Positions 8,885 to 27,397 of a stretch of 64,000 nt of DNA are shown in pieces. Where the stretch lies: assembly GCA_030697795.1 (NCBI GenBank), contig JAUYOV010000004.1, positions 144,403-208,402 of the forward strand, read 5' to 3'. Within the stretch, counting starts at the first letter, position 1. Each line of letters opens with the position of its first letter. Below the pieces are notes generated by a model. That model saw only the letters and a program-made list of their open reading frames with translations. It did not search any database and had not been told where the DNA came from. This DNA is from a bacterium (GTDB lineage Bacteria > Patescibacteriota > Minisyncoccia > JACQLN01). The translations under genes and the position numbers were made by a program.

Positions 8885-8904
8885 TATATACTAATATTTA
8901 AATT

Positions 8905-8978
8905 TTGGGGTTTATTTGTCAATCAAGCTGAGCTTGGTCAACCGAGCTTAGCTCGGTCAATAAAAACTATCTTTATTT
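8905..8978. repeat. two tandem short palindromic hairpins (caagctGagcttg; ccgagcTTAgctcgg), each preceded by (t/g)gtcaa
   Basis: Perfect palindromes read directly, between the SDR stop and the neuA start. Confidence 0.4.
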
Positions 8979-8979
8979 T

Positions 8980-9735: not shown

Positions 9736-9788
9736 TAAAAAGCCAAGAGGTTTTTGCTCTTGGCTATTAATCTACGTCTAATAGCTTT

Positions 9789-10283: not shown

Positions 10284-10289
10284 AATATT

Positions 10290-10882: not shown

Positions 10883-10994
10883 GACTATCTCCTCTTCAAA
10901 AAGTTAAAGAACTAACTGACTTGTAATATAACCCATTAAAAAGCCGGCGAGTTTTGACACTCGCCGGTTGCGTTTTTTCGCCTATTAGAATGAA

Positions 10995-11864
10995 CTATCC
11001 CTTGCGTCGGAGCTTCTTCATAACCGGTATTTCCGATTCCAAGAGTTTTTTGACACCATCGCCCTGTGACTGTTCAAAAATCCTGATTTCCTCTGCTAAT
11101 TTCTTGCAACCCTCATGCTCAATACTGGCCGATTGATCCGTACCCCACATAGCCCTGTTAAGCGTGATGTGGCGTTCCACCATACAGGCACCCAGAGCTA
11201 CCGCCGTCAAAGAGGGGTATAAACCGACCTCGTGACCACTGTAACCCACCGGCACTCTATAGCGTTCTCGCAGAGTTTGTATGACTCGGAGATTCAGCTC
11301 ATGCCAATCAGCAGGATAGGTAGCTACACAATGCATCAGAACCAGGTTTTCTACCCCCAGAACAGAAACAGCGTGATCCACCTGCTCTAATGTACTCATA
11401 CCAGTAGAGATGATAACGGGCTTACCCTTGCCTTTGGTATAACGGAGAAGATTATCATCAGTCAGAGAAGCCGAAGCGATCTTGTAGCACGGCGGGCTGA
11501 ATTGATCTATAAAATCAACACTCTGTTCATCCCAACAAGAAGCAAACCAGATGATACCCTTTTCCTTACAATGACGATCAATCTCCCTATACTCATCTTG
11601 ACCAAACTCCAAACCTCGCTTGAGATCACCGTTAGTAGAACCGAAAGGATTTTCCCGGGGACGCGCTAATTCTTCGGGTGTATACACTACATCAACAGTT
11701 CTTTTCTGAAACTTAACCGCATTCCACCCCGCCTCTACAGCAACATCTACCAGCTTCTTGGCAATTCCAACATCACCATTATGGTTTATGCCTATTTCTG
11801 CCACTAGAAAAATCCTGTGGTCGCCTACCAGTATTCCGCCACTATTTACAACATTGGAATTCAT
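10995..11864 (-). CDS. neuB: NeuB-family PEP-dependent ulosonate (sialic-acid-type) synthase, short form without C-terminal SAF domain
   Basis: FLVAEIGINHNGDVGIAKKLVDVA signature; 289 aa. Confidence 0.8.
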   Translation of the reverse strand: MNSNVVNSGGILVGDHRIFLVAEIGINHNGDVGIAKKLVDVAVEAGWNAVKFQKRTVDVVYTPEELARPRENPFGSTNGDLKRGLEFGQDEYREIDRHCKEKGIIWFASCWDEQSVDFIDQFSPPCYKIASASLTDDNLLRYTKGKGKPVIISTGMSTLEQVDHAVSVLGVENLVLMHCVATYPADWHELNLRVIQTLRERYRVPVGYSGHEVGLYPSLTAVALGACMVERHITLNRAMWGTDQSASIEHEGCKKLAEEIRIFEQSQGDGVKKLLESEIPVMKKLRRKG

Positions 11865-11958
11865 ACTTTCCCCTTTCTCTGGTTTTTTGGTTGAATTTTA
11901 TAAGAACCATCCTTGGCTTATCTTAAATCTAATAACTTCTAAACTACCCCCATGGTTT

Positions 11959-12900
11959 CTAATCTGTTTTATTTAGATTTAAGAAGTCTTGAACATCGTT
12001 GGTATCGTAGCGCGGTATTAACATAGCTTGATCATTTTTTGAAACGGCCATTGGCTCAATAGTAACAGCGTATTTAAAACCCTCTTCAGCTAAAACTTTA
12101 ATGGTACTAACTCCAGCCCGCCCGTGTGGATAAGAAAATATAACTGGAGTTTTAGCTAGTAAATCTTTTAAAACTGTATTAGCCAATCTAATATCTCGCT
12201 TTAAAACATCGCCACCCAGAGTATCTAGCGCGTAATGACCATGAGAGTGGTTGCCAATTTCCATATCCTGATCACGTAATTCTAAAATTTGCGTTTGACT
12301 CATAAAAATTTGTCGGCTCAATTTTTTTTCATCAAGCCGCGTTGTTTTAAAACAGTATCTTAAAAATCTGCCCTTAACATCCTCGGGTAGGCCAATCATA
12401 GTTTCCTTGAAATTGGCGGTGGGTATATCCTCATGTTGCCTGCGCTCAAACAATCGCTTGTCTGTGGGAATAAAATAAACAACTTTAAGATCAGAATAAA
12501 ACTCACCCAGAAACCTGTGGAAGACATCAATAAGTTCGGAGGAAGATAGCTTAGAAAGTAAAACATGTATCTTATGGGTAGCCGGCAAACTGCCTTCAAA
12601 AGTAGAGGTTATGGGGAAAAAAGTCCCTCTGACTTTATACTTGTTCAATATTGGCACCGCATTATCATATTGTCCCTTCAAACCATCATCAAAAGTGATA
12701 GCGCAAAACTTTCCCTTTGACTCTTTTCGGGCAAAATCAAAAACTTGGCCTACGGAAACAATCTCATAATTTTTAGACAAAAAACTTATCTGCTTTTCAA
12801 ACTCCTTGACTGGACAGGGATGTATGCCGCCCCAAGCCGCACGAGGATCTTCAACATAATGATAATTGATTATAATATAGTTGTCTTGGGAAGAAATCAT
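11959..12900 (-). CDS. polysaccharide deacetylase (NodB-homology) family protein
   Basis: FCAITFDDGLKGQYDNAVPILNKYKVRGTFF; HGRAG His motif. Confidence 0.7.
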   Translation of the reverse strand: MISSQDNYIIINYHYVEDPRAAWGGIHPCPVKEFEKQISFLSKNYEIVSVGQVFDFARKESKGKFCAITFDDGLKGQYDNAVPILNKYKVRGTFFPITSTFEGSLPATHKIHVLLSKLSSSELIDVFHRFLGEFYSDLKVVYFIPTDKRLFERRQHEDIPTANFKETMIGLPEDVKGRFLRYCFKTTRLDEKKLSRQIFMSQTQILELRDQDMEIGNHSHGHYALDTLGGDVLKRDIRLANTVLKDLLAKTPVIFSYPHGRAGVSTIKVLAEEGFKYAVTIEPMAVSKNDQAMLIPRYDTNDVQDFLNLNKTD

Positions 12901-12924
12901 ATAAAATATCGGCGCCGACCGATT

Positions 12925-13614
12925 TCATTTTTTCCTTAAGATGTAATAAACCCAATTGCCAAACCATTTATTCTCTGGTAGAAACTTCAATCTTTTCAGC
13001 ACCGGCAAACTAATTTTGGAATGGATATAACCTTCTTCAATCAACTCAAAATATTTTAGAAAAGTTTTTTCGAATATGCCGTGCGGAAAAACACTTATAT
13101 GATTGTTTGTTTCATTCCATCTAGGAAACAAACCCTTTTTTAAAAAAATAAGACGGGATACAATGTGAAATATATTTGGCACAGAAAAAATAAACAAACC
13201 TTCTGGCTTTAAAATCCTGTGGATTTCTCTAATGGCATGATGCGGATTTTCTAAATGCTCAAAAACTTCCCAAGCACTTACAACATCAAAAAAACAATTA
13301 TCCCACTTAAGATTCTCAAGACTTATATCCAAGTCATTAAACTCCTTTATTAATGGTTTAAAATCCGTGGCTATATAATTATCGATATCACAGGCATAAA
13401 TATTTTTATAGCCACGGTCATGCACTGCCTTGAGAAAAGCTCCGGAACCTGTTCCTATATCCAACACTTTAGCCTCTTTGTTCAAAACAGTTCTTTCAAA
13501 AATACCGATATTTCTGCCTTTCAGAGCTAACAACCTTCTGTCGGGATGAATTTCAAATCTTTTTTGGATCGTTTCTTTGTCATTTTTTATTTCACTGGGA
13601 TTAAAATATTTCAT
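12925..13614 (-). CDS. class I SAM-dependent methyltransferase
   Basis: VLDIGTGSGAFL motif I; ACDID motif II. Confidence 0.7.
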   Translation of the reverse strand: MKYFNPSEIKNDKETIQKRFEIHPDRRLLALKGRNIGIFERTVLNKEAKVLDIGTGSGAFLKAVHDRGYKNIYACDIDNYIATDFKPLIKEFNDLDISLENLKWDNCFFDVVSAWEVFEHLENPHHAIREIHRILKPEGLFIFSVPNIFHIVSRLIFLKKGLFPRWNETNNHISVFPHGIFEKTFLKYFELIEEGYIHSKISLPVLKRLKFLPENKWFGNWVYYILRKK

Positions 13615-13631
13615 ATATATTACAATTTATT

Positions 13632-14963
13632 TTAGACTAACTTTTTAAGTATAACATCGGCTAACCTTTTACCAGATTGGCCGTCCAATTTCCAGCATCT
13701 CTCTTCAATAATCTTTTTTCTCCCCGCTAAGTCTAAATTAGGGTTGGCCAAATAACGCTCCAAATATACGATCAGGCCTGCCGGTGTCTTGGCCAACTTA
13801 ACCCCTTGAGTGCTTAAAATGGAACGTTGGTGATCGTAGTCGTAAAATCGACGCAAGCTTTTCCAATATGGTCTCTTCGCCTCGCCATCAAAACCTACAA
13901 AAATCACCGGTTTATTAAATACCGTAGCATCTATAGCTAAGGTTGAAGCAAAAGCCACCACTACATCGCTATGATACAGCAAATCAGCCAAATAGGCATC
14001 CTTGCCGGTAAGATCAGCTGACATAAAATCATCCCCTTTGCCAGGATTATTTATAACCAATCTTCCCGGAATTTCTTTGATGCCATCTAAATTCACACTG
14101 CCAACTATATATAATCTAAGAATGATTTGAATATCTATTGTTTCCAATGCATCAACCACTTTCTTGGTTATAGAATCTCCTTGCGTATAAATATCGCTAG
14201 GGGCGGCAAAAAAAATAGTCTTTTTGTTAGGATCCAGCGCCAGCTTTTCAAATAATAATTTTTTAGAAATTCTTTTTTCAGCAACATAGGCATCATAATG
14301 GGGTATACCCACTATAGAGACGTTATCTGGCTTGAAATCACAATATCTTACAGCTTCTTCTTTTATTTTAGGTGTATTAACCACAAGTTCATTTGTCATA
14401 ACCTTATTCAAACCCTTGGTGGTTATGTTATCCCAAGAACGAACCATACCTATAACATGAACCCCTCTTCTTTGGGCTGATTGGATCATACAAACATCGC
14501 TCGGTTCAAAGATGTCGGTGGCAAAAACAAGATCCGGTTGGTATTTTTCGAAATAACGGGCAAAGGTCTCATCCCTTAAAAAAAGACGGCCCAACCAGCG
14601 TAAAAACGACCTAAAGATTTTAAATTTAGAACTTTTCGCCGCAATAAAATGCCAGCCCGAACTCAAATACTTCCCATATTTTTTGCGCTCAATAAGTCGG
14701 TGTATTCTGCGGGCGGCGGTATCCGAAGCATTCAAGAATAGTGCCGAAATAATTCGCTCCCAAAAAAAACTTGGCATCTTATCCACCCCCTCTATCTCAA
14801 TGTTCCCCGCAGAAAACATTTTTTGGTAAGACGCTTTTTTTTCTTGGGGCGCAAAAATAATTATTCTTATATCCGGCTGACTGCCTAAAATTCTTAAAAA
14901 ATCAGTAGCCAGAATATTTCTAGCAATCAATCCAAAAAAACTGGATACGAAAATAGTTTTCAT
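13632..14963 (-). CDS. TagB/TagF-like glycosyl/glycerophosphotransferase family protein (paralog of 2450-3817)
   Basis: Similar length and N-terminus (MKTIFVSSFF vs MKTVFLFLKN) and a similar C-terminal FNKPVIFVGFDG block. Confidence 0.3.
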   Translation of the reverse strand: MKTIFVSSFFGLIARNILATDFLRILGSQPDIRIIIFAPQEKKASYQKMFSAGNIEIEGVDKMPSFFWERIISALFLNASDTAARRIHRLIERKKYGKYLSSGWHFIAAKSSKFKIFRSFLRWLGRLFLRDETFARYFEKYQPDLVFATDIFEPSDVCMIQSAQRRGVHVIGMVRSWDNITTKGLNKVMTNELVVNTPKIKEEAVRYCDFKPDNVSIVGIPHYDAYVAEKRISKKLLFEKLALDPNKKTIFFAAPSDIYTQGDSITKKVVDALETIDIQIILRLYIVGSVNLDGIKEIPGRLVINNPGKGDDFMSADLTGKDAYLADLLYHSDVVVAFASTLAIDATVFNKPVIFVGFDGEAKRPYWKSLRRFYDYDHQRSILSTQGVKLAKTPAGLIVYLERYLANPNLDLAGRKKIIEERCWKLDGQSGKRLADVILKKLV

Positions 14964-14972
14964 AGGTATTAT

Positions 14973-16391
14973 TTATGTTTTAACAAAAAAAGATCTCGCC
15001 GCCATTATAAACTGACGTCCTACTTTAGATATTATTTCCTTATCTAAACTGTCAAATTTCATTAACCCGCCCCATTTTAATTTAAATTCTGGATACTTTT
15101 TTACTAACTGGCTATAGAAAAGAACCACACGTTCAATATAAACAATCCCATAAACAACGCCCGCGCCTAAAATCCCTAAAGTGGGCAGAAAAATAAGCGA
15201 ACCTAATGGTAAAATAATGACCTCGTTAAACAAACGGAGAGTTAAAATTTTGTATTCCCGTAAAATAGTTAGAGTGGTCTTAAGCAATTTATATGTACCA
15301 TAGATGGGCAATACCATCAACATAATTATAACTAGGGGTAAAGCCGGGACGTAATTGGGGAAAAGCAGTGGTATCACATTGGGAATAACCACCAGGCCTA
15401 ACACAAAAAGAATCGAGCCCAACCATACAGTATACTTAACCGCTTTTGTAAAAATAAAACTGGCCTGGTTTTTGTTATCTATCCTTAGCAATAAAACCTC
15501 GCCTATGCCTTGTGTGGGCATTAACTTTTCGACAAAAGCCACCAAGTTTAGAGATAATGAATAGAAAGCTACCGCCTCTACATTTATAAAAAACTTAATC
15601 AACCAGGGCATACTGTTTTTGGTCAATTGGGCCAAACCATACCTTAAGAAAATAAATCCGCCATATTTTTTTAAAATTTCAGCAAACATAGTCAATCTAC
15701 GTTCAGATTTCAAACCACCGAAAAAATGTCCGTATGCCTTAATGAAAGACCATAAAGTAATCACTACCAACGCCACGGCTTCTCCTATAATATGAACAGT
15801 GACTACATTTAAGATACTTAGTGTAGAATAAAAAAACAACACAGCCAGCAACAAAAACTTAGTCACTTCTCTAATGGCTGGCGAAGCCCAATAAGAAAAT
15901 ATCAGCGCTGGTTTAAGCAGGGCGGTTTGGACCGACTGAAGAGTATGAATAATAATCAAAATCGCGCCTATCTTAATGATTGAGGAAATATCTTGATCAT
16001 AGAATCTGGCAATAACCTCAGCACCTAAAAAGGCTACCAAAAACAAAACCAGTGCCAGAGAAATTCTAACAAAAGCGCTTTCCAGAAAAAGTTGCTTGGC
16101 TTCTTTAAGCTTGTGCGTGTTGAAATATCTGCGGATTTCAACAACAACCACATTGGCCACAATACCGGCATTGAATCCTTGTAAAATGGCTATAAACGAT
16201 AGCAATAGTTGGTAAAGACCAAACTGAAAAACACTCAAACTGGATATGATAAAAAAGGAACTAGCTAAACTAAAAAAGGTGGCTAGGGCTCCATAAAAAC
16301 GCCTAGTGGTTTCTACGCTCACAAAATAGCTGGACAATCTTTTGGGCTTATTATTAGGTTCCATATTTTTAGACATAGAATTAATTTTCAA
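14973..16391 (-). CDS. wzx: oligosaccharide flippase, MOP/Wzx-like
   Basis: 472 aa, about 12-14 hydrophobic helices; sits in the glycan locus. Confidence 0.55.
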   Translation of the reverse strand: MKINSMSKNMEPNNKPKRLSSYFVSVETTRRFYGALATFFSLASSFFIISSLSVFQFGLYQLLLSFIAILQGFNAGIVANVVVVEIRRYFNTHKLKEAKQLFLESAFVRISLALVLFLVAFLGAEVIARFYDQDISSIIKIGAILIIIHTLQSVQTALLKPALIFSYWASPAIREVTKFLLLAVLFFYSTLSILNVVTVHIIGEAVALVVITLWSFIKAYGHFFGGLKSERRLTMFAEILKKYGGFIFLRYGLAQLTKNSMPWLIKFFINVEAVAFYSLSLNLVAFVEKLMPTQGIGEVLLLRIDNKNQASFIFTKAVKYTVWLGSILFVLGLVVIPNVIPLLFPNYVPALPLVIIMLMVLPIYGTYKLLKTTLTILREYKILTLRLFNEVIILPLGSLIFLPTLGILGAGVVYGIVYIERVVLFYSQLVKKYPEFKLKWGGLMKFDSLDKEIISKVGRQFIMAARSFFVKT

Positions 16392-17472
16392 TAAAAACGG
16401 CTAGCTTGTTTATCAACTGTACCAAACTATGCTTTTCCACAACTAATCGGCGCATAAAAACAGTTATATTTTCTTGCTCGTTGTTTGTAATCTTAGTATA
16501 GGCAATTATTTTTTCGGCAAGGTCACCAACATTTTCTTCCTTAAAAATAACTCGATTTTTATACGCTATTGGAATTATAGCCTCCACTGTTTTATTAGAA
16601 ACCAAAACCAACAAGCCACAAGCCATAGCTTCTAGTATAGTTTTATCAAAACTGCCGGTAGGGGTAAGATTAACAAAAACTCCGCTACTATTATAAACTT
16701 CTGGAGTTTTTTGATTAGATATCGCTGGCCTAAACTCAATCTTGCCCCTAGACAACAAATCCGCCGACATTTTTTTTAACTTTAATTCATATTCTTTATC
16801 AACTATAGAAGAACTGGGAGAACCGACTATCAAAACCTTAAAATCAAAACTGCGATTATCCAATATTTTGGCGGCTTCGATAAGATATTCTATTTTTTTA
16901 ATGGGCGAAATCCGCCCTAAATATAATACCTGCCTGTTATTTTTTGAGATTTCCGGCATTGGCCTAAAAAAATTTGTATCTACACCCACTGGCATTAGTG
17001 AAGTTTTTTTATACTTAGCCGAAAAAGAGTAAGGCGATGTGCAAAAAACTTTATTAGAAAAAAATATGCCGACCATGGCTAACATATTACCCATGGGGTG
17101 GTTATACCATAGAAAAATTTTCTTATTCATCAGTTTCCAAAAAACACCACCTAGAACTAGATAGATTGGGTTCATATGAACTAGAACAGTATCGTATTCC
17201 TTTCTTATTGAAAAAATATATTTATAAAACCTATAAACATACTTTAACTTCCAAATAATTTCTAATTTCCAATTTCTAATTTCTAAATTTCTTTCGTCTT
17301 TACCTAAGGAAAAAACATTAATACTTTTATCCAAAGTGCTTTCGCCTTTATATAAGCAAATGATGTTGAGTTTATTTGTTTTTTTGGCCAATTCTTCCGC
17401 CCAGCGGTGATAAACACCCAAAACATCGTCGTTTTTATCTATTTTTTGAGTTATAAAAAGCAATTTTGCCAT
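16381..17472 (-). CDS. glycosyltransferase family 4 (GT-B)
   Basis: LGRISPIKKIEYLIEAAKIL; EAMACGLLVLVSN (E-x7-E-like motif). Confidence 0.75.
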   Translation of the reverse strand: MAKLLFITQKIDKNDDVLGVYHRWAEELAKKTNKLNIICLYKGESTLDKSINVFSLGKDERNLEIRNWKLEIIWKLKYVYRFYKYIFSIRKEYDTVLVHMNPIYLVLGGVFWKLMNKKIFLWYNHPMGNMLAMVGIFFSNKVFCTSPYSFSAKYKKTSLMPVGVDTNFFRPMPEISKNNRQVLYLGRISPIKKIEYLIEAAKILDNRSFDFKVLIVGSPSSSIVDKEYELKLKKMSADLLSRGKIEFRPAISNQKTPEVYNSSGVFVNLTPTGSFDKTILEAMACGLLVLVSNKTVEAIIPIAYKNRVIFKEENVGDLAEKIIAYTKITNNEQENITVFMRRLVVEKHSLVQLINKLAVFIEN

Positions 17473-18542
17473 GATTGTTTAATCTTATTAAGATAATCTT
17501 CCTTCGAATTATAAAAACTTAAAAACTTTTCTTGACTCTTAAAAATTTCTAATCTTTTTTCCTTGCTTTCAACTAAAATACCTAACTGTTTTATTAACTC
17601 TCTCTTACTACCAACAGGGTATACAGACCCTATGGCAATACCCACATCTGTCATTACAACTGGCAAACCAGCACCTGTAGCTTCTATAACTGTCCTGCCA
17701 TAACCTTCGTAGTTAGACGTTAATAGAAATAAGTCCGCAGTTTTATAGTATGAAGACAAATTGTTAGACCAATTTTCAAAAATCACATTAGCCCTTAGCT
17801 TATAGCTTATAGCTTTTAGCTTTTCTAATTCGGGACCATTGCCGACTACCAAAAGAAGTGCTTGTGGATATTTTTTAGCGATTTCAACCATAGCTTCTAT
17901 TGCTAAACCAATATTTTTTTCTTTGGTTAACCTTGAAGCCATAAGAACTATAAACTTATTTGGATATTTTTTATGCAAATCTATATTAACTGGAGCATCT
18001 TTTATTTTTTGTGTATCTATAAAAATTGGCAAAACATCTATCCTAGCTTTTAGCTTATAGCTTTTAGCTTTTAGGGAATTTTTAATCCGTTCAGAAACAA
18101 CGCGTATATTGTCAGCTCTTTTGATAATCCGCCTAGCTAAAATAACCCTGATTTTATTTTTAAAAGACCCTTTTTTAAAATATGGGCTTAAAAAATCAGT
18201 ATGAACCTGCATCTGCAGGGGAACTGATTTAAAAAATTTTAAAAAACAACCAACTAAACCCAACTCAAAAGGATCCTGACAAGTGATTACACAATTTTTA
18301 ATTTCTAATTTCCAATTTCTAATTATCGAGGAAGAAATTCTATAAGCATTCCAGAAATAAAAGACACCAAAACTATTTGTGGAATACAAAAAAATATTCC
18401 CAATAACTTTATTTATTTTTTGGGAGCTTTTTATTACTACGTGTAATTCTTCTACTAACTTTCCATAATCTACAATCCGAGCCAAAACTTCCGAACCTTC
18501 TTTAAAAATATTCTCGTCCGTAGACAGCATTAAAACTTTCAT
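17451..18542 (-). CDS. glycosyltransferase family 4 (GT-B)
   Basis: TSNYEGYGRTVIEATGAGLPVVMTDVG. Confidence 0.75.
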   Translation of the reverse strand: MKVLMLSTDENIFKEGSEVLARIVDYGKLVEELHVVIKSSQKINKVIGNIFLYSTNSFGVFYFWNAYRISSSIIRNWKLEIKNCVITCQDPFELGLVGCFLKFFKSVPLQMQVHTDFLSPYFKKGSFKNKIRVILARRIIKRADNIRVVSERIKNSLKAKSYKLKARIDVLPIFIDTQKIKDAPVNIDLHKKYPNKFIVLMASRLTKEKNIGLAIEAMVEIAKKYPQALLLVVGNGPELEKLKAISYKLRANVIFENWSNNLSSYYKTADLFLLTSNYEGYGRTVIEATGAGLPVVMTDVGIAIGSVYPVGSKRELIKQLGILVESKEKRLEIFKSQEKFLSFYNSKEDYLNKIKQSWQNCFL

Positions 18543-18693
18543 ATTTTGTTCGTGAGCGTTAGCGAGCGACTACAAAATATAGAACCCCGCACCAAACCTG
18601 CAGAGAGAGTTTTTTGGTGCAAAGTGAAAGCCGCAGGCGTTTCGCTGTAGTATTTTTTTGATGTAAATATTCGATTGGGTTTTGGTGCTGGGG

Positions 18694-19344
18694 TCATTTT
18701 TCTAAAATAAAAAACAATCTAAAGTTATCCAAAACCGGCCGTACTTTTTTAACCGATTTAAAATTATTTTTTAAGATTTTCATTACTTTGCCCAACCGAT
18801 AGTTATAACCGTCTATCTCCCAGTAATGTTGGCCGGAGGTTTTGAATCCGCCGAATTTTAATGGAATTCTAAAAAGAAAACCTAGAAAATTTCTTTTAAA
18901 TAAGGTCCTAATGCCTGGAAATTTAAAAACAAATTCAAACCCAGTTGAACGATATGGCAAAGAAATAACAACATACTTAGAACTTACCCTGTTAATTTCC
19001 GTTAAGACCCTGTCCAATTCTTCAAAGGGGATATGCTCCAGAACCTCAAAAGCTGTAACCACGCTAAAAGACCCATCCCCAAATGGCAATTGCCGTATAT
19101 CGGCCACATAGTCGGGATTAAGGCTTTTATCCAAATCGCAGGTAACCACGCTAAAACCAGCCGTTTTGAGGTAATTAGAGGCCATACCAGAGCCTACACC
19201 CACCTCTAAAATCTTGCTTTTAGCCTTATCTTCCACTAGCGAAGACACCAGATCTATTTGATAAAAATACGATATAAAACGCTCCAAACTATTATACTTG
19301 GATTTAAAATAGTGAGCTTTATTTTTTTGAGTTTTAAATTCCAT
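18694..19344 (-). CDS. class I SAM-dependent methyltransferase
   Basis: ILEVGVGSGMASNYL; FSVVTAFEVLEHIP. Confidence 0.7.
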   Translation of the reverse strand: MEFKTQKNKAHYFKSKYNSLERFISYFYQIDLVSSLVEDKAKSKILEVGVGSGMASNYLKTAGFSVVTCDLDKSLNPDYVADIRQLPFGDGSFSVVTAFEVLEHIPFEELDRVLTEINRVSSKYVVISLPYRSTGFEFVFKFPGIRTLFKRNFLGFLFRIPLKFGGFKTSGQHYWEIDGYNYRLGKVMKILKNNFKSVKKVRPVLDNFRLFFILEK

Positions 19345-19346
19345 TT

Positions 19347-21611
19347 TTAAAATAATTTTATAAGTTCATTTATTGTATTTTCTATAGAAAATTTTTGGGC
19401 TTTTATTTTGGCTTTTTCAGCAATATTTTTTCTAAAATCTTTATTATTATCCAACTTATTTATGGCGTTTAAAAATTGTGCCTTATTGTTCGGTTCCACC
19501 AATAGCCCCTCAACACCATTTTCCACAATCTCCGCCAGATTGCCGATGTTAGTGGCAATAACAGGCACGCCCAAACTCATAGCTTCCACAATTTGAAAAG
19601 AAAAACTTTCAAAAGAGGTGTTAAGCATAAATATATCGGCTTCACTAATTTTTTGCATCAATTCATCTCTTGGAATTTGGCCCAAAAGTCCCACTCGATC
19701 TTGTAATCCAAGATTTGAGACTTGAGATTTGAGATTTGCATGTTCCGGACCGTCCCCGGCAATTATAAGTTTCCATTCCGGCAAATCTTTCATCAATTCA
19801 ATCAAAAAACTAAACCCCTTCCACGGCACCAACCTTCCTGCAGAGATAATAGTTTTTGGAGTTTGAAATTTAGAGTTTGAGGTTTGTTTCGGATTTCGGA
19901 TTTCGGATTTCGGATTTTCTAATTTAATGCCATTATATATCGTAACCACCCTATCTTTATTCTGGACCCATCCTCTCACCAAATCGCGAAAATAATTGCT
20001 AGGGGTAATAACAATATCAGCACTGCCAACCACAAACTTTTGAATACTTCTTAAAAATTCTATTTTCCACCCATATTTTTTATTTTGAAAAATGTCTATT
20101 CCCTCTTTTACTCCAAAACGCTGTACAGATTGTTCCCAAACATAATCCCCTGGCACTCTGATTATAAATTTCCTGCCAGACAATTTGGTAGCGAGCATTG
20201 ACGGCAAGCCAACACTGATAGTATCTTGAGCCAAAACAAAATCATGTTGCCAACACAAACGTAAAACTTTAAAAAAATAAAATAAATGACGAACCCCTTT
20301 GGGCCAATTTCTTACGACCCTAAAGGGTAACACGGATACACTAATACCTCGCTTAGGTAACTCTTTTTCAAGTAAAACAGCATACGTGGCCGGCCCGCCG
20401 ATTTCGGGCGGATAAATACCTGTCGCTAATAGTAACTTTTTTTTAGGCATTTTCTCCATAATTTGCTTCATTCTTACCGATATATTTTCCCACGAATAAT
20501 TTTCTTCAACAGTTTTTCTACCATTCTCCGACAACTCGTGAGATAATTCCGCATCGTTTAGTATTGTGGTTATTTTTTTAGATAAATCATCTGGATCGTC
20601 AACTTGGCAAAATAATCCGTTAACATTATTGATCAAAAAATCAGGTATGCCTCCAACTTCAGTGCCAATAACCGGCAAACCGGCCGCCATAGCTTCTAAA
20701 AAAGAATTGCCTAGTCCCTCTGATCTGGAGGGGCGTACAAAAAGATCTGCTTGGTAAAGATACTTCGGAATCAGATCAGGATCAACATGCCCGACGAATT
20801 TTACTTGATCAACAATACCTAAATCCTTAGTTAACTTCTCTAAATTTGACCTATCTGGACCATCGCCGACAATTAGTAATTGATAATTAGTAATTGGTAA
20901 TTGGGCGCAAGCCCTAATAAGAATATCTACCCCATTTTTATAAACCAATCGCGAAGTGGTAATAATTATTTTGACATTTGGATTTTTAGTTTTATTTAGA
21001 AATTGGGAATTAGAAATTAGAAATTTGGAAAGATCTACTCCATTCGGCACTACTTCCACCGGACAAATCGCACCGTACCGATGCGCAAAATCAGCCAAAT
21101 ATTTGCTTATGGTTTGAATATAATCCGCTTTTTTAAATATTTGCTTCCATAATGGATAAAATATTCCCACCCTTTTTAATATATGTTTTTCTGAATCGCC
21201 TTCTTGCAAAGTTAGCAAGAACGGAACTCTGGGGTTAAATAATTTAAAAAACAAAGCGCCAAAACCAGCATAAGCCGCCATAATAGACCAGATCAGTTTA
21301 TATTTTTTCTCGCGATGCAATCTGCGGGCCAAAAAAAATGCTTTAGCCGGAAAAAGTGATTTACCGCCCTTAACTCTATAAACACTAACATTACCTATGA
21401 CTTCATGATCCGCATGACTTCTATCAAACCGCAAAGTTATTAAGTCAAAATCAAAAGAATCACCCAAACGATCGGTGATTTCTTTTATGGCAATTTCAGC
21501 TCCGCCTACTAAGGGAAAGTAAGCTAGAGAAAAGATTAAAATACGAGGTTTTTTGGCATTATCCATACTAATAATGTAACCCATTACAGCAAGATAATAT
21601 AACACTAACAA
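19347..21611 (-). CDS. tandem double-domain GT4 glycosyltransferase (two GT-B modules fused)
   Basis: 754 aa. First module GGAEIAIKEI…SRSEGLGNSFLEAMAAGLPVIGTEVGG; second module GGPATYAVLLEKEL…SFESFSFQIVEAMSLGVPVIATNIG. The true start is possibly MDNAKK, about 45 nt inside. Confidence 0.7.
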   Translation of the reverse strand: MLVLYYLAVMGYIISMDNAKKPRILIFSLAYFPLVGGAEIAIKEITDRLGDSFDFDLITLRFDRSHADHEVIGNVSVYRVKGGKSLFPAKAFFLARRLHREKKYKLIWSIMAAYAGFGALFFKLFNPRVPFLLTLQEGDSEKHILKRVGIFYPLWKQIFKKADYIQTISKYLADFAHRYGAICPVEVVPNGVDLSKFLISNSQFLNKTKNPNVKIIITTSRLVYKNGVDILIRACAQLPITNYQLLIVGDGPDRSNLEKLTKDLGIVDQVKFVGHVDPDLIPKYLYQADLFVRPSRSEGLGNSFLEAMAAGLPVIGTEVGGIPDFLINNVNGLFCQVDDPDDLSKKITTILNDAELSHELSENGRKTVEENYSWENISVRMKQIMEKMPKKKLLLATGIYPPEIGGPATYAVLLEKELPKRGISVSVLPFRVVRNWPKGVRHLFYFFKVLRLCWQHDFVLAQDTISVGLPSMLATKLSGRKFIIRVPGDYVWEQSVQRFGVKEGIDIFQNKKYGWKIEFLRSIQKFVVGSADIVITPSNYFRDLVRGWVQNKDRVVTIYNGIKLENPKSEIRNPKQTSNSKFQTPKTIISAGRLVPWKGFSFLIELMKDLPEWKLIIAGDGPEHANLKSQVSNLGLQDRVGLLGQIPRDELMQKISEADIFMLNTSFESFSFQIVEAMSLGVPVIATNIGNLAEIVENGVEGLLVEPNNKAQFLNAINKLDNNKDFRKNIAEKAKIKAQKFSIENTINELIKLF

Positions 21612-21745: not shown

Positions 21746-22540
21746 TTACTTTAACTTATCTATTTCATCCTGTATACCTGTTTGATCGGGCGATATTTTA
21801 AGCACTTCTTGGTAATATTTTAAAGCATTGGTTTTATCACCAGTATCTCTATAATAAGTAGCCAAACTTAATACCAAATTAATATCTTTGATTATACTTA
21901 TACCTTCCAGTAAAACTTTGGGCGCTTCTGACTTTTTAGCTGTATAAACATTTTTATAAAAATCAGCTAAACCCAAATAATAACCTACTTGGTAAGGATC
22001 ATTGGTAATGGCTTTTTTAAAGTTTAGTTCGGCCTTGGCATTATCATGCAAATAAAATCCATAGAGGTTGCCCAAATTGGCAAAAGAAAGCGCATTGGCC
22101 GGATATAAAACCCCAGCATATTCCCAAGCATCGCGCGTGCCTTCAAAATCGTTAAAAAACTTTTTTATAACCCCGACCGCAATCCAATCATCCACACCGG
22201 CATTTCCCATGGGCTTCGCAGTTAAGACCGCGGCCAGAACTTTCAAATCGCCACGTTTCTTTTCTATGGCGCCACCGCCTGGATCGCTAAAACCTTGACC
22301 AAAAATAACTTCGTTTAGCGGACGGCCGGTATATTTTGGAATTTCATTTATAGGTTTACCCAAAAAAGGGCTGGGTTCGTTGATTGGAGTTTCTTTTATA
22401 ATAGCATCGAAATTGTTGGAGTCTTGAGATGGTTGAAACGGTATTTCATCGCTTTTAAAAATATAATTGGCCACAATAATACCGACTAGGGCCAAAACAA
22501 CAGCCAAAATTATTAACAATTTTTTATTCAGCATAAACAT
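21746..22540 (-). CDS. membrane-anchored TPR-repeat protein
   Basis: N-terminal hydrophobic anchor LLIILAVVLALVGIIV; C-terminal TPR-like repeats (…ALKYYQEVLKISPDQ…). Confidence 0.5.
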   Translation of the reverse strand: MFMLNKKLLIILAVVLALVGIIVANYIFKSDEIPFQPSQDSNNFDAIIKETPINEPSPFLGKPINEIPKYTGRPLNEVIFGQGFSDPGGGAIEKKRGDLKVLAAVLTAKPMGNAGVDDWIAVGVIKKFFNDFEGTRDAWEYAGVLYPANALSFANLGNLYGFYLHDNAKAELNFKKAITNDPYQVGYYLGLADFYKNVYTAKKSEAPKVLLEGISIIKDINLVLSLATYYRDTGDKTNALKYYQEVLKISPDQTGIQDEIDKLK

Positions 22541-22578
22541 AACAAGATAGAATAATAACCGAACTTTTAATAAAAAAC

Positions 22579-22650
22579 AACCCCCTCACTCAATTTGAGT
22601 GAGGGGGTTACTAGTTTCTCTTCCGATCCGCCAGCTGGCGGATCGGAAGG
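22579..22650 (-). terminator. tandem intrinsic terminators after the giant surface-protein gene
   Basis: CTTCCGATCCGCCagcTGGCGGATCGGAAG (13-bp stem) and CCCCCTCACTCaatttGAGTGAGGGGG (11-bp stem), followed on the minus strand by TTGTTTTTTATT. Confidence 0.75.
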
Positions 22651-22671
22651 CACAAGTAAACTAGATTTAAC

Positions 22672-25600
22672 TTACTGCGTCAAGGTTAGAGTCTCGGTCA
22701 CACCGCCGTCAGTGTTGGAGAGACCGGACACCAAGAAACCGTTGAACCAATCGTAGGAGCTAACTGATTGGGCAGTGTTAGTGGAATTACCAGACCAAAT
22801 GAAATCATTGTCCGGCCAAGCATCCACATTAGCCGCCGTGGTAGCAAAGACATAACGACCAGTCGTGTAATTATCACCACTGCAGGTTATATCACCACCG
22901 CATACTTCAATATCAACACTATCATCAGCATATTCGCCATTATTCAGTGAAGCAAACTGGGCATCGCTCTGCATCTTAGCCACAATTGAAGGTGTGGAAC
23001 TCGCACCAGTAACATCGGCTTTCAACACAAAGTATCTGGTTTCTCCCGCCGGAATCGCAACCGCTTCAGCGGTAGCACTGGTTGGGTTGGCGGGGTTAAA
23101 GGTTATGCTGACAATCTGCTCGTTAGATCCACCCGCCGTGGTGCTGGCTATAGTAGAGAAGTCGGAAATACCAGTACCGTTAAGTAAACCACTGTTGTTG
23201 GTGTTGCCACAGGCAGGCACACTGAAACTGGCATCGCTATAACAGAACACTTGGTAGTTGGTCACCCGATAGTCAGACACAGGCGGATCTTCTGTATTAG
23301 GACCTTCGGGGAACTCCTGCAGATAACCGCTGACCGAAGTGGACACCGAGAAGGTAAACTTGTACAAGCTAATGCCGTTAGTGCTAGCCGGAGACAAAAT
23401 CTTAAACCGGTACAAGCTTTGCTCCGATAGGTTGGAAAACTTAGTGTTGGTTAAAGCCACTCTTTCCACTGTGGGAACAGCTTTGGCAATTCTAGCGCCG
23501 TTAGAAGCCGTGTCAGATCCGCCAGAATAAAGAGCAGTACCGGAAGATGCGCCTGTACCCTTCAATCCAAGATTAGTTTCATCATCCGATGACGCAGCAT
23601 CATGTTGCACCATAATCAAGTGCCCCGGGAAAGCACTGGTAACTGTACCAACAGTGCCAATATCACCTTTAACGGTTATAAGCATCTGGGTGTCTTTAGT
23701 AATGGTTAAATCAGCATCAGTAGCACCAAAACTAGTGCTAAAGGTGGTAGTAGCATAATCACTGCTAGTAAATGTGGCCTCACCGATTTTCTTAGCGCCA
23801 CTCCACAAAGTAACCTTGCTGATATCCGAAGGCGTATTGGAAGCCATAGTATCATTTGCATCCGTTGAAGAAGCAATCTGAAGACCCATTCTTTCTAGTT
23901 TTATATCCTCGTAAGTAGCATTGACTCTTAATACAGCCAGAGTTTGATCAGTCGCGCCAGCTTGCACCCATTTTAGAGCTGGGCTGGAAGAATCCAAAAC
24001 TACCGATACCGAACCGCCACTACGCAAGGTCATAGCCTGTCCGTTAGCCGTGGAAAGGGTTTCTGTAACTGCTTGACCCGATGTTTGGCCGGTAGAAGTT
24101 ATACTGCCTGCCGCACTGGTTACACCCAAACTAAATGTGGTTGTGCCCGCTGTAGCTTCCGCATCCACATTGCCTTTAACATCGCACTTTAAGGCAATCG
24201 TCTTGACCGAACCTTTGGGCGTAATTAAACCGCTGTCCAAGTTGAAGGTAAGATCATCACCCGTGGTTACGCTGTTAGCCGGGCTATTGGTATTACCACC
24301 TGTGGTCAGTGAGGTGTCACCGTCAAACAAGGCGCAACTCTGTAACTGGTCAAATGTATTGGCCGTACCGGTAACTCTCGTCTTAAACAAGGTGGTGCGA
24401 ATATCTTCGCCCGAAGCCGAAGCGTCAAAAACATAGTTGGCAAAAACGAAAGATTTGGAACCGGTAACTATATTTTGAGCTGATGGGGTCGGGGATACAG
24501 TTACTGTAAGCGCCGCCGCTTTCACTGTCATGGTATTTAAGGTAACAGCGCTAGCCGGACCGGGCGTAATGGAATTACCTGTAGTCTTGCCTCTGACAGT
24601 GCTCCAGTCGGAACTGGGTGTGGTGGAAGCCGACACTGTGTCGTTGCTCAAGAAATCCGTACCCATCTTACCCTTAATGGTGTAAGTGTTGGTGCCGATA
24701 GGGAAAGTAACCGTGTCGGTAAACTGAATACCGTTATTACCGCCAGCTACACCGTCTACCGGACCCGCCACTGTATTGCCGTTGCCATCCACCAAAGTAA
24801 TACTGGTAATGTCAACAGAATCAATAGCGCCTCCCACGCCAGCCGATTCAACCGTGGAAACATCAAAGTTCATGGATGCTACAGAAATTTCTTCGCCTTT
24901 TATTTCTACATCAAACCCGCCCAAAATCTGGTTGGAAAGATTAACCGCAACATTTTGCGCGGCTACCTTGCTAGATTTGGTTACGTTAATAGTGCCGTTG
25001 GAAATCGTAACTTCATAGCCATCATAGTTAGGATTAGCATCTTGGAAAGTGCCGTCATCATCCGTAGCTGAATCAGCAGAGTTACTGGCTGTTGGCAAAA
25101 TGTCATAACCGTAAACATTGCCAGCAACTTTAATATCAGCATATCTGTAAAGATCAAAGTCTACACCGCGACCGGAACCGCTAATAATATCGCCCTTAAT
25201 GTAGATGTCTTTGAACTCACCCTTAGCTAATTTCAAACCGGCATCGCCGAATTTAGCTGTAAAATACTTACCATCGCTGGAAACAGTATGGTCGTAGCAA
25301 TCACCGCCATCAATACAGGTTTTAACATTGGTTAAGTCGCCTGTAGCGGCTGAACCGGATTGATTCCATCTTATGGATTTAACTGTCATATCTTCCGATG
25401 AACCTGCCGAGAGTTTAATGGAAGCAAAAGTATAATTGGTCAAACCAACTTCTTTAGTGGGACTGGAACCGGGTTCTCGTGCACCTGTGGTCAAAGTCAA
25501 AGTGCCCACTGCTAGGGTAGAGTTAATCGTCATACCGTTACCAACGATTGGTAAAGTGCCATTAACCGTGGCCGAACCGGCATCCACCGCGATCAAACTT

Positions 25601-26451
25601 AAAGTGGCAATTTGGCCAGCATAAGCGTCTTGGTTGTTGTCGGAATCGCCGGCAAGGCTCATACCTCGCGTGGTGCCAGCTTTAACCACAAAGGGTTCGT
25701 TCAAAACAGCTTGGTGGTTGGAATTTAGTGTTTTGGAAGTACCGATTCTGGTGCCTGTTTCATCCAAAAGGATCAAACCGCTAAAGACTGCGTCTTGGGC
25801 TTGTCCAGTTCTTTCAATCGTTACCGATTTAACCGTAACATCGCCATCCGAAGAAGCTGTAAAGTTAATCTTGGTGAAGGGTCGGGAAGCAAAGCTTTCA
25901 CCGAAAAGACCCGCCGCCGCCGTATCACTTGCCAAAGCTACTGTTAAACCGCTACCCGCCGCGACTGGTGCGGTTGGCGTGGTTGCAGAAGGCGTGGTTG
26001 GCGTAACAGCAACAGAACCAGCCATAGAAGAATATTTAGCCCTTGAAATCGTACCAAAATAACCTGCGGCTGGGCTAACACCATTGGCAGATTGCCAAGA
26101 TGCCACTGCGGCTTTGGTTACATTGCCAAAGTAACCCGTAGCAGTAGCACTAAAATTCCCCATGGATTTTAAATAGTTTTGTAAGCACGTAACATCATCT
26201 CCGCGCGCGCCTACAGTTAATGCTCTAGTAAACGTACAGGCAGTTGCGCCAGCCGAACTAGAACCGCCCTGCAAAGCGATCAACTGTGCCTGAAGAGCTT
26301 GGATTTGCGACAGTAAAAGCGCAATCGTCTCCGCAGTTGTAGCTGCGCCAGCAGTAGGAACGCCTACGAGCCAAGCAAAAGTTGTTACCATCAAACCGAA
26401 AGAAACAACTTTGCTAGCGAGCTCACGGCGCTTGCTAGTAAAATAACTCAT
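22672..26451 (-). CDS. giant secreted/cell-surface protein with N-terminal peptidoglycan-binding-like domain and Thr/Ser/Gly/Ala-rich beta-repeat body (S-layer/adhesin-like)
   Basis: 1259 aa. N-terminus has a hydrophobic signal, then CTFTRALTVGARGDDVTCLQNYLKSMG…GYFGNVTKAAVASWQ (PG_binding_1-like). Strong SD AAGGAG 9 nt upstream. The gene looks more GC-rich than its surroundings, driven by T/S/G/A codons. Confidence 0.7.
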   Translation of the reverse strand: MSYFTSKRRELASKVVSFGLMVTTFAWLVGVPTAGAATTAETIALLLSQIQALQAQLIALQGGSSSAGATACTFTRALTVGARGDDVTCLQNYLKSMGNFSATATGYFGNVTKAAVASWQSANGVSPAAGYFGTISRAKYSSMAGSVAVTPTTPSATTPTAPVAAGSGLTVALASDTAAAGLFGESFASRPFTKINFTASSDGDVTVKSVTIERTGQAQDAVFSGLILLDETGTRIGTSKTLNSNHQAVLNEPFVVKAGTTRGMSLAGDSDNNQDAYAGQIATLSLIAVDAGSATVNGTLPIVGNGMTINSTLAVGTLTLTTGAREPGSSPTKEVGLTNYTFASIKLSAGSSEDMTVKSIRWNQSGSAATGDLTNVKTCIDGGDCYDHTVSSDGKYFTAKFGDAGLKLAKGEFKDIYIKGDIISGSGRGVDFDLYRYADIKVAGNVYGYDILPTASNSADSATDDDGTFQDANPNYDGYEVTISNGTINVTKSSKVAAQNVAVNLSNQILGGFDVEIKGEEISVASMNFDVSTVESAGVGGAIDSVDITSITLVDGNGNTVAGPVDGVAGGNNGIQFTDTVTFPIGTNTYTIKGKMGTDFLSNDTVSASTTPSSDWSTVRGKTTGNSITPGPASAVTLNTMTVKAAALTVTVSPTPSAQNIVTGSKSFVFANYVFDASASGEDIRTTLFKTRVTGTANTFDQLQSCALFDGDTSLTTGGNTNSPANSVTTGDDLTFNLDSGLITPKGSVKTIALKCDVKGNVDAEATAGTTTFSLGVTSAAGSITSTGQTSGQAVTETLSTANGQAMTLRSGGSVSVVLDSSSPALKWVQAGATDQTLAVLRVNATYEDIKLERMGLQIASSTDANDTMASNTPSDISKVTLWSGAKKIGEATFTSSDYATTTFSTSFGATDADLTITKDTQMLITVKGDIGTVGTVTSAFPGHLIMVQHDAASSDDETNLGLKGTGASSGTALYSGGSDTASNGARIAKAVPTVERVALTNTKFSNLSEQSLYRFKILSPASTNGISLYKFTFSVSTSVSGYLQEFPEGPNTEDPPVSDYRVTNYQVFCYSDASFSVPACGNTNNSGLLNGTGISDFSTIASTTAGGSNEQIVSITFNPANPTSATAEAVAIPAGETRYFVLKADVTGASSTPSIVAKMQSDAQFASLNNGEYADDSVDIEVCGGDITCSGDNYTTGRYVFATTAANVDAWPDNDFIWSGNSTNTAQSVSSYDWFNGFLVSGLSNTDGGVTETLTLTQ

Positions 26452-26546
26452 TTGTTTTTCTCCTTTTTTGATCTAAATGCGCCCAGACACCCCTGTAAAG
26501 AAGTCTCTAAACATATTTAAATCTCTTAATTAATTTCTAAAACTAC

Positions 26547-26750
26547 TTATAAATCAAATTTAATAACTAATAATCGGAGCCAAGTCATTTTCCCAAAAGG
26601 GAACCGACCTAACTTTCGAAACTCCATAAAACCAAAACTTAATTGGGATATAGAGCGATCTTTCAAAACTGAATAATAAATCTTTAAGAATTTCTGTATA
26701 TCAGATAGATATTCAATTGTTAAAGGGCTTGGCCTTTCAACGTTGCTCAT
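26547..26750 (-). CDS. hypothetical small protein (67 aa)
   Basis: ORF preceded by AAGGA about 9 nt upstream; no recognisable domain. Confidence 0.25.
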   Translation of the reverse strand: MSNVERPSPLTIEYLSDIQKFLKIYYSVLKDRSISQLSFGFMEFRKLGRFPFGKMTWLRLLVIKFDL

Positions 26751-27397
26751 TCATCACAATCCTTAATCCGCAACCATTTATTACTTCCGTTACATCTTTT
26801 TTCTTGGTTGAGAATTAAGAACCACGATATTTTTTAAAACTGCTTTCTAAAAACAACAAAACAGCCTTTTTAATTGGCCCTGAAATATTTATTTGGAAAA
26901 TTCATAGGTTACGCTCATTTAGCTTACCTGAAAGTATTTTACGCATCTAGCCCCTCTGTGTCAATAATTTATTTTAATTGAAGACAGTTTGATTTTTGTG
27001 TCAAAATGCGTTGCTTTACTAACAGGGTAAACCCCGTAAGACAACTTTGACCATTAAACCTAGTCGCCGACTAATCTAGTTAAGTGCCTTAACAATCAAA
27101 TTGCTTTTGGAACAAATACCCTATTTAACCATCGGTTTAATGAAAGGCGACTGTCAAAGTTGCTCTACGGGGTAAACAAAACGACATCAAGTCTCCGAAC
27201 CGCTGGCTAAACAGGAAACCCTGAACTTGTGTTAAAGACATTATACCATAAAGAAAATCGTGTCCAGCTTATGCCAACTGTGGAAAAAATAAGCTCCAGT
27301 GGAAAAAACCAAATGGCGTAAAACCTATATAATTTCAGAGTACTATGTCTAAACAATACTAACATACAAAGCAAAACCTTAAAACAACCTTGTTGTG

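Follow-up and report, generated by a model that had tools for sequence, protein, structure and literature searches.

The DNA considered here, which we call the window, comprises 64,000 nucleotides of contig JAUYOV010000004.1 (positions 144,403 to 208,402 of the forward strand; GenBank assembly GCA_030697795.1) from a bacterium of the lineage Patescibacteriota, Minisyncoccia, JACQLN01, and our subject is a giant gene on its minus strand whose product we consider a candidate for the surface coat of this cell. An original prediction, made from the letters of the window, had described the product as a 1259-residue surface protein with a hydrophobic signal and a peptidoglycan (PG)-binding-like N-terminal module. 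A single long open reading frame (ORF) of that size is indeed present, and its translation is identical to a database entry, from a 278-kb MAG (metagenome-assembled genome) contig, that NCBI names 'peptidoglycan-binding domain-containing protein'. The gene and the parts of the protein that it encodes are as follows.

22672..26451, minus strand: coding sequence (CDS) of the giant surface protein, 1259 aa, a single long ORF identical to NCBI MDP3764366.1
26344..26451, minus strand: predicted signal peptide, residues 1-36, with a KRR n-region, a hydrophobic core and the end AGA (ATT following); disordered in the structural model
26272..26337, minus strand: amphipathic heptad helix, residues 39-60, with a/d positions I43, L46, I50, L53, L57 and L60
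26020..26244, minus strand: PG_binding_1 domain, residues ~70-144, from Pfam PF01471, the model and PDB profile matches
25969..26016, minus strand: Pro/Thr-rich linker predicted to be disordered, residues 146-161 (predicted local distance difference test score, pLDDT, <50; lowest-entropy window)
23482..25965, minus strand: five homologous Ig-like beta-sandwich modules, residues 163-990, from the model and hhalign
22675..23481, minus strand: C-terminal region, residues 991-1259, beta-rich, most variable and indel-rich, with the last ~50 residues conserved

The giant protein contains 13.3 % Thr, 11.4 % Ser, 11.0 % Ala, 10.2 % Gly and 7.6 % Val, with 114 acidic and 72 basic residues, and for its mature form we compute a pI of 4.4 and a mass of 125 kDa; these values match the established bulk properties of S-layer proteins, which are acidic and rich in the same five residues. 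That richness had been predicted as part of a low-complexity tract of about 1100 residues, and only the richness stands: because the mean entropy of 40-residue windows is 3.52 bits (3.61 for ClpB), conservation extends over the full length at 40-84 % identity and the pLDDT is mostly above 90, we do not regard the tract as one of low complexity. The sole low-complexity segment is the Pro/Thr linker, at residues ~146-161, where the entropy has its minimum. The G+C content of the gene is 0.476, against about 0.37, and since the excess sits at codon position 2 (0.52 versus 0.32-0.42) we attribute it to amino-acid composition and rule out horizontal transfer as its source.

The predicted route of the protein out of the cell is simple. 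Its sole Kyte-Doolittle peak lies at residues ~11-34, in keeping with the signal that had been proposed, and no other transmembrane segment was detected (maximum hydropathy 1.22 outside residues 1-60), which gives the combination expected of an S-layer protein, a predicted signal peptide and a mature part free of membrane spans. No LPXTG motif was found in the protein, the only similar string, VPTAG, lying inside the signal peptide, and the C-terminus (...GGVTETLTLTQ) is without the hydrophobic segment that a sortase-anchored adhesin would have. In the heptad helix, L46, Q49, I50, L53, Q56 and L57 are each at least 90 % conserved in an alignment of 52 sequences; a profile search with this segment matched coiled-coil proteins only, and sequence and model together suggest that it is probably a coiled-coil oligomerisation stalk. 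The PG-binding-like module proved to match the Pfam domain PG_binding_1 with an E of 2.8e-10 over residues 83-126 (score 40.7 bits, cutoff 23); it is modelled as three helices over residues 85-144 with pLDDT 86-96 and matched, in a profile search of the PDB, by the PG-binding domains of endolysins and carboxypeptidases. It holds a cysteine pair, Cys72-Cys89, both members of which are present in 49 of the 52 homologues. A module predicted to bind the wall thereby adjoins the N-terminus, as would be expected of an S-layer protein, and no SLH domain (PF00395) was seen in the giant protein (E<=1) or in seven divergent homologues (E<=0.1). Scans against Pfam and NCBIfam gave no family in the giant protein beyond PG_binding_1, and Pfam gave no other domain in the seven divergent family members.

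Structure prediction for Ig-like repeats was the check that the original prediction had called for. We ran AlphaFold2 with the 52-sequence alignment on two overlapping segments, residues 1-640 (pLDDT 84.3, predicted template modelling score, pTM, 0.64) and residues 601-1259 (pLDDT 83.1, pTM 0.77), and past the linker the chain is modelled as all beta to the C-terminus, with pLDDT mostly above 90, which bears out the anticipated beta-sandwich architecture. Within the model, the pTM of the C-terminal half shows a fixed inter-domain packing, of an intramolecular kind only. The five modules have approximate limits of 163-305, 306-470, 471-640, 641-800 and 801-990, and nine of their ten pairings reached 62-99 % probability in hhalign over 76-148 columns, the weakest pair (306-470 versus 471-640) having a probability of 10 %. 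Self-BLAST of the protein did not detect these internal repeats but profile-profile comparison did, and by the latter method residues 991-1259 are not homologous to them. Within the repeat region, the pair Cys706-Cys756 is present in all 52 sequences. Cys1070 and Cys1081 co-occur in 23 of the 52; such paired, co-conserved cysteines fit an extracytoplasmic protein with disulfides. Foldseek comparison with the PDB returned generic tandem Ig-like proteins only (integrin alpha legs, the Ig-like domains of PrgB, antigen I/II, MSCRAMMs and pilins), at ~10 % identity and template modelling scores (TM-scores) of at most 0.28, and there was no enzyme fold among these matches. Sequence and profile searches of the PDB matched only the PG-binding and coiled-coil parts.

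How widespread is this protein? At E <= 0.001 a word-index search gave 604 proteins, and the figures for identity and length come from 120 of them: among these listed matches identity was 40-84 %, most were full-length at 1150-1290 aa, all named members came from metagenome-assembled genomes (MAGs) of Patescibacteria/Parcubacteria, and the names given were 'peptidoglycan-binding domain-containing protein' or 'hypothetical'. MDP3764366.1 is itself filed in a 90 % cluster represented by a 73-aa fragment, which is why the search gave no self-match and a best match of 84 %. An exhaustive phmmer search with residues 137-1259, which omit the PG-binding domain, gave 1547 representatives of 50 %-identity clusters at E <= 1e-3, 493 of them at E <= 1e-30, and when each GTDB species was represented by a single genome the family was found in 468 genomes, under lineage names that include Yanofsky-, Harrison-, Lipton-, Sung-, Giovannoni-, Niyogi- and Kaiserbacteria and Minisyncoccia. 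Full-length collinear homology, from the helix through PG_binding_1 and the five repeats to the C-terminal ~50 residues, was found in more than 100 proteins with 93-100 % coverage, and 60 columns of the 52-sequence alignment are invariant. Judged by this homology, the giant protein is a member of a big uncharacterised Parcubacteria family of uniform length. Conservation is uneven along the chain, being 50-62 % identity over residues 51-650 and 24-49 %, with many indels, over residues 750-1200; the C-terminal region has blocks of 24-40 % identity before conservation rises again in the last ~50 residues. A conserved wall-proximal half and a variable, indel-rich distal third would fit inward anchoring and outward exposure. 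As an aside on nomenclature, many TPA_asm MAGs that carry a giant gene of the Parcubacteria type (among our loci L016-L088) are titled 'uncultured Candidatus Saccharibacteria bacterium'; judging by what genes they hold and in what order, these titles are probably either wrong or no more than generic.

The giant gene appears from its flanking signals to be a separate transcription unit with its own promoter and terminator, for which we list these elements.

26936..26964, minus strand: predicted sigma-70-type promoter, TTGACA (26964-26959), 17-nt spacer, TAAAAT (26941-26936)
26452..26929, minus strand: predicted structured untranslated 5' leader, ~478 nt, from folding and covariation
26460..26464, minus strand: Shine-Dalgarno sequence AGGAG, with the ATG 8 nt downstream
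22620..22649, minus strand: first post-stop hairpin, a 30-nt perfect palindrome with no T-run
22566..22612, minus strand: predicted intrinsic terminator, with a 17-bp stem (8 G-C pairs), a 3-nt loop and a T-run

High expression had been predicted from a strong Shine-Dalgarno sequence and a double terminator. The former lies at 26464-26460 as expected, and of the two hairpins present past the stop codon the second is a canonical terminator and the first has no T-run. A GC-rich hairpin with a T-run within 150 nt of the stop codon occurs in 69 of 73 related loci, compared with 15 of 240 control windows inside coding sequence, so that the terminator is a family-wide trait. The promoter matches the consensus at 11 of 12 positions, is the top-scoring promoter-like site in 21500-27600, and has its hexamers kept in six of the seven close relatives whose sequence reaches that far. 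Together with the structured leader these signals point to strong expression; S-layer genes are well known for long structured leaders and strong terminators.

A transcription start predicted near 26929 would give a leader of ~478 nt with a minimum free energy of -121 kcal/mol (z = -3.98 versus shuffles). When eight related loci are aligned, paired cells make up 91 %, and 17 double-sided pair changes were counted, versus 9.0+-2.0 in shuffled alignments (0/500) and 4-12 in slid controls. Conserved helices lie at 26828-26753 (H3), 26625-26576 (H4-6) and 26523-26470 (H7), the last of these, just 5' of the Shine-Dalgarno sequence, having double changes at 11 of its 21 pairs, and a long-range pairing of 26860-26850 with the Shine-Dalgarno/start region (26462-26451) is possible. 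Leader identity in one relative (L010; the letter L marks our numbering of related loci) is 76 %, in patches, compared with 79 % for the CDS, so that higher conservation of the leader does not hold throughout the close relatives and we reject a family-wide RNA. The leader contains no ORF of at least 100 aa and has no match in Rfam. A 68-codon ORF within it was rejected, its frame being broken in relative L001 by three indels (-1, -1, +1). We consider the leader a candidate for a new cis-acting mRNA leader of one sub-clade. Distant relatives have two genes in its position, between clpB and the giant gene, that encode a ~236-aa polytopic membrane protein and a ~225-aa DeoR-like protein; we saw them at L003 8147-9672, L006 8104-9558, L009 8245-9708, L008 6371-9531 and L011 854-3379, and tblastn found no remnants of either in the window. 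With its C-terminal DeoR-like winged helix, the ~225-aa protein is a possible dedicated regulator. In the window, a 21-nt inverted repeat (27031-27051 and 27153-27173, 86 % complementary, around 101 nt) is located between the clpB terminator and the giant-gene promoter, in a stretch partly absent from L001; either a small mobile insertion or a large hairpin is conceivable here.

Two further features lie beyond the terminators.

21746..22540, minus strand: membrane-anchored TPR protein, 264 aa, with TPR Pfam matches and a single predicted transmembrane segment at residues ~9-27
534..21611, minus strand: predicted cell-surface glycan cluster of 19 genes, from domain searches

The giant gene had been placed directly downstream of a 21-kb glycan locus, an order that has to be reversed. 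Because all 21 genes in 534-26451 are on the minus strand, the giant gene is transcribed first, with the glycan locus on its 3' side, the order of transcription being clpB (27430-30048), 978 nt of non-coding DNA, the giant gene, its terminators, the TPR gene and then the glycan cluster, which begins 1.06 kb downstream of the giant gene. In the comparison of synteny among relatives that had been proposed, we counted GTDB loci with enough flanking sequence (n=54 downstream, n=60 upstream). A TPR homologue lies within 2 kb downstream of the giant gene in 49 of the 54 loci, a GT4 glycosyltransferase gene within 6 kb downstream in 26 of 54 but, as a control, in none of 60 upstream, and a rare double-GT4 fusion within 10 kb in 29 of 54, while ClpB is encoded within 6 kb upstream in 27 of 60. 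The TPR membrane protein follows the giant gene without exception in the nine annotated contexts (41-84 % identity), and wherever the contig was long enough GT4 genes came next, with clpB usually upstream. A GT4-rich cluster next to the giant gene therefore recurs far above chance. Its content differs between lineages, as we saw on inspecting single loci that had no GT4 match in the count: at L086 (Sungiibacteriota) the TPR gene is accompanied by FnlA-like and epimerase sugar genes and a double GT4, that is, by a different glycan cluster, and at L058 (Parcubacteria) a PMT_2 GT-C gene and a double GT4 lie near the giant-gene homologue. The TPR protein is the constant partner of the giant protein, and the glycan cluster is a frequent, non-random but not obligatory neighbour.

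Two kinds of gene caught our attention during these comparisons. The double GT4 (~720-790 aa) recurs even where the other sugar genes differ, and is found at 19347-21611 of the window (minus strand) and at L003 15749-17974, L006 17098-19398, L011 10694-13078, L012 9842-12079, L058 20462-22780 and L086 21494-23650. A lamin-tail domain (LTD), in some cases joined by PKD domains, occurs in proteins encoded at 33638-34897 of the window (minus strand) and, in relatives, near the giant gene at L058 18637-20448, L086 19891-21450 and L079 15905-19123; these are probably a second class of surface proteins in these genomes.

The glycan cluster contains, in order, genes for the double GT4, a methyltransferase, two GT4 enzymes, a Wzx-like flippase, a TagF-like enzyme, a second methyltransferase, a CE4 deacetylase, NeuB, an SIS fragment, a KdsC-like phosphatase (a KdsC/KDN-9-P-phosphatase-like HAD protein), an SDR, a CMP-sugar synthetase (nearest PseF), a pyruvyl transferase, a methyltransferase, a PhyH-like oxygenase, a fourth methyltransferase, another TagF-like enzyme and a 624-aa membrane protein, so that the flippase, GT4s, TagF-like enzymes, pyruvyl transferase, four methyltransferases and ulosonic-acid pathway of the original prediction are all there. 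The first of the two TagF-like proteins has a weak resemblance to the BFO_1060 family, scoring 52 bits where the cutoff is 200; this family is implicated in the addition of nonulosonic acid to the Tannerella S-layer O-glycan. The 624-aa protein (534-2408, minus strand), at the distal end of the cluster, had been called GT-C-like, a description for which we found no match in Pfam, NCBIfam or the PDB, although one of 26 homologues has a weak PMT_2 match. It is polytopic with a soluble C-terminal part and has 70 homologues in Patescibacteria. In 92 loci no gene for a homologue came nearer than 10 kb to the giant gene. The protein is a candidate for a novel transferase or polymerase. The SIS fragment is a 109-aa ORF (10290-10619, minus strand) that matches only the C-terminal third of SIS_2 (model positions 81-138 of 138), and in the ~375 nt 5' of it (10620-10994) no ORF is listed; truncation of a sugar isomerase gene of the nonulosonic-acid pathway, or a frameshift in it, may account for the fragment.

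Which known systems does this locus resemble? In the sgsE/slg (S-layer glycosylation) system of Geobacillus the S-layer gene is monocistronic and has the glycan cluster nearby, in which the TPR protein WsaA is encoded just upstream of wsaB (PMC2943079). The giant gene, predicted to be transcribed alone and close to a glycan cluster, follows the same pattern (PMC2943079), and the likeness extends to the single orientation of the genes, the TPR protein, a methyltransferase and multi-domain glycosyltransferases. The slg-like arrangement suggested earlier is accordingly borne out in its layout. Of the enzymes that define the Geobacillus system, however, we found here neither the Wzy_C O-oligosaccharyltransferase (WsaB/WsfB) nor a priming enzyme of the WsaP type, and a Wzm/Wzt ABC exporter was likewise not seen; the place of these is taken by TagF-like enzymes, a flippase that is Wzx-like and a pathway for nonulosonic acid, and glycosylation of the giant protein is putative. 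With SbsC/SgsE, Sap/EA1 and SbsB the giant protein shares a Sec signal, an N-terminal wall-binding module, ~6-9 beta-sandwich domains, a size above 100 kDa, an acidic character and a gene expressed alone, and SbsC, described as nine domains in a beads-on-a-string arrangement (PMC13635256), is among its structural matches. It differs from them in its anchor, which is PG_binding_1 plus a coiled-coil helix rather than SLH or a helical domain that binds secondary cell-wall polymer, in having no sequence similarity to them (with TM about 0.12, the structural likeness is of a generic kind) and in the far higher conservation of its family; a lattice of the giant protein is hypothetical.

The coats of Deinococcus radiodurans (HPI) and of archaea consist wholly of tandem Ig-like domains (PMC10120038), and such architectures can therefore build lattices; the likeness to the giant protein is one of architecture alone, as anchoring and envelope type are different and there is no detectable homology. 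In Foldseek the giant protein is matched best, with E from 1e-12 to 1e-6, by PrgB, antigen I/II, MSCRAMMs and Spa pilins, over long stretches of tandem beta-sandwiches at ~10 % identity and TM 0.1-0.28, but no LPXTG, isopeptide or ligand-binding head domain was identified in it and its anchor is N-terminal, not C-terminal. The S-layer O-glycan of Tannerella forsythia is methylated and terminated by nonulosonic acid. The glycosylation locus for it shares with the window a NeuB-type synthase, a CMP-sugar synthetase, methyltransferases and, weakly, a BFO_1060-like TagF; against this stand the sub-cutoff score of that TagF, the unenriched glycosylation motif described below and the nature of the organism, a monoderm-like bacterium of the candidate phyla radiation (CPR).

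An apparent S-layer has been seen on a Parcubacteria cell by cryo-electron microscopy (cryo-EM), with PG-binding proteins being suspected (bioRxiv 10.1101/2022.04.20.488981), a 2026 review says merely that S-layers are 'reported in some species' and names no protein (PMC13293708), and in Gracilibacteria the S-layer candidates are SLH proteins instead. On the evidence of sequence and models, we rate the chance at about even that the giant protein is the major wall-anchored surface-coat (S-layer-type) protein of the Paceibacteria/Parcubacteria (CPR) cell. Of the surface protein originally envisaged, what has survived is a secreted, all-beta, Ig-like and non-catalytic protein with predicted PG anchoring, and what has not is the gene order and the low complexity. 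Several observations weigh against its being an S-layer protein: its anchor is PG_binding_1 and not one of the established S-layer anchors, SLH or CWB2; identity within the family is 40-58 % across candidate phylum-level groups, which is unusually high given that S-layer proteins normally diverge fast; ten cysteines are atypical for such proteins; the top Foldseek matches are adhesins and integrin legs, SbsC at rank 44 being the sole S-layer protein in the top 50; and the leader is limited to the closest sub-clade, its position being held by the two genes described above in distant relatives. To these must be added, for a glycosylated coat, the missing enzymes and the cluster-free loci discussed below. 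Might the protein instead be an adhesin or fibril for attachment to a host, archaeon or bacterium, in which an Ig-like stalk on a wall-anchored N-terminus carries a variable, host-binding C-terminal region? In favour of this, adhesins and pilins with Ig-like domains in tandem (PrgB, the AgI/II family, ClfA/B, FnBPA and SpaD) lead the structural matches, variability is highest in the distal third, and Kuroda et al. read highly expressed, secreted Paceibacteria proteins with PG-binding and Ig-like domains as host-attachment factors (PMC10936435), although the sole protein of theirs that we checked (PMX_810_sub_00350) has 693 aa and gave no link to the giant family. Even so, we think this role rather unlikely, since length and domain number are near invariant over hundreds of species whose hosts are presumably different, the pTM of the C-terminal half indicates fixed packing and not a flexible stalk, and there is neither a sortase signal nor a recognisable ligand-binding head domain. 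Adhesins, moreover, usually vary in repeat number. The roles of coat and adhesin are in any case compatible and not mutually exclusive. An enzymatic role at the cell wall, as a secreted hydrolase or a SpoIID/LytB-like protein targeted by its PG_binding_1 domain, seems to us highly improbable: two homologues are named 'SpoIID/LytB protein', the literature has the label 'extracellular enzymes', PG_binding_1 usually accompanies wall hydrolases and that of the giant protein is matched by endolysins and carboxypeptidases, but outside this module the models are wholly Ig-like beta-sandwich, Foldseek retrieved no enzyme fold and neither the giant protein nor the seven divergent homologues have a Pfam or NCBIfam catalytic domain.

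Whether the giant protein is glycosylated by the adjoining cluster is a separate question, and the idea that it is so, which is weaker than that of an S-layer protein, seems to us doubtful. The cluster may instead belong to a pathway for a secondary cell-wall polymer, a teichoic-acid-like polymer or a capsule, with envelope genes merely clustered and the protein unglycosylated, for which we see a chance only a little short of even. TagF-like enzymes, Wzx-like flippases and pyruvyl transferases are linked to wall polymers, and the cluster has two, one and one of these, respectively. No Wzy_C/PglL-type or STT3 oligosaccharyltransferase was recognisable among the 20 downstream ORFs (E<=1e-3), and no priming enzyme of the Bac_transf, MraY/WecA or WbaP type in the ORFs of 534-22540, though a gene for the latter could be located in another part of the genome. 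A strong, conserved terminator splits the giant gene from the cluster, and the cluster is missing past the TPR gene at L061 (Giovannonibacteria), where the giant gene is followed by TPR, SecF, RpoB and RpoC genes, and at L079 (Niyogibacteria), where TPR, transposase and LTD protein genes follow it. In the giant protein, whose Thr/Ser tracts had been suspected of containing O-glycosylation sites, the Bacteroidetes O-glycosylation motif D(S/T)(A/I/L/V/M/T) is not enriched (8 seen versus 8.8+-2.6 expected). Set against a wall polymer are the strongly non-random linkage to GT4 genes (26/54 downstream versus 0/60 upstream) and its persistence with other sugar genes in the Sungiibacteriota, the weak likeness of one TagF-like enzyme to BFO_1060 (52 bits), the PMT_2 (GT-C) gene near the homologue at L058 and the 624-aa membrane protein, which could be a novel transferase. 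The slg clusters of Geobacillus, too, lie near an S-layer gene that is transcribed separately (PMC2943079).

If the giant protein is a coat protein, we envisage the following. It would be exported by Sec with removal of a signal peptide of ~36 residues, and its N-terminus would be held at the wall, where the heptad helix would oligomerise and the disulfide-braced PG_binding_1 domain would bind the cell's own peptidoglycan. From there the Pro/Thr linker would lead to the five Ig-like modules and the variable C-terminal part, pointing outward, and lateral contacts between the rigidly packed modules may form the outer proteinaceous layer seen by cryo-EM. Expression would be strong and separate, with the structured leader stabilising or regulating the mRNA and the terminator limiting read-through. 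The membrane TPR protein would be a dedicated extracytoplasmic partner in assembly, chaperoning or modification, and the GT4/flippase/nonulosonic-acid cluster would make a methylated, pyruvylated acidic glycan, either as a decoration of the giant protein or as a wall polymer within one common envelope module. We put forward, tentatively and as less likely than not, the broader proposal that the family is a new S-layer lineage of the Paceibacteria/Parcubacteria, anchored by a coiled coil and PG_binding_1 in place of SLH, co-inherited with the TPR protein, often O-glycosylated with a nonulosonic-acid glycan without a known oligosaccharyltransferase (the 624-aa protein being a candidate transferase) and, in the closest sub-clade, under the control of a new structured leader RNA of ~480 nt.

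Much of bacterial diversity belongs to the CPR/Patescibacteria, which live attached to hosts and on whose envelope cryo-EM shows a surface layer. In the literature that we searched no Parcubacteria S-layer protein had been identified, and we regard the giant protein as the best candidate yet for the surface coat, its family being a concrete and near-universal one that offers a defined wall anchor, a conserved partner gene and an associated glycan locus. As the region past PG_binding_1 has no Pfam model, this family stands unannotated in thousands of MAGs. With its variable distal third, it could mark the evolution of the interface between these bacteria and their hosts.

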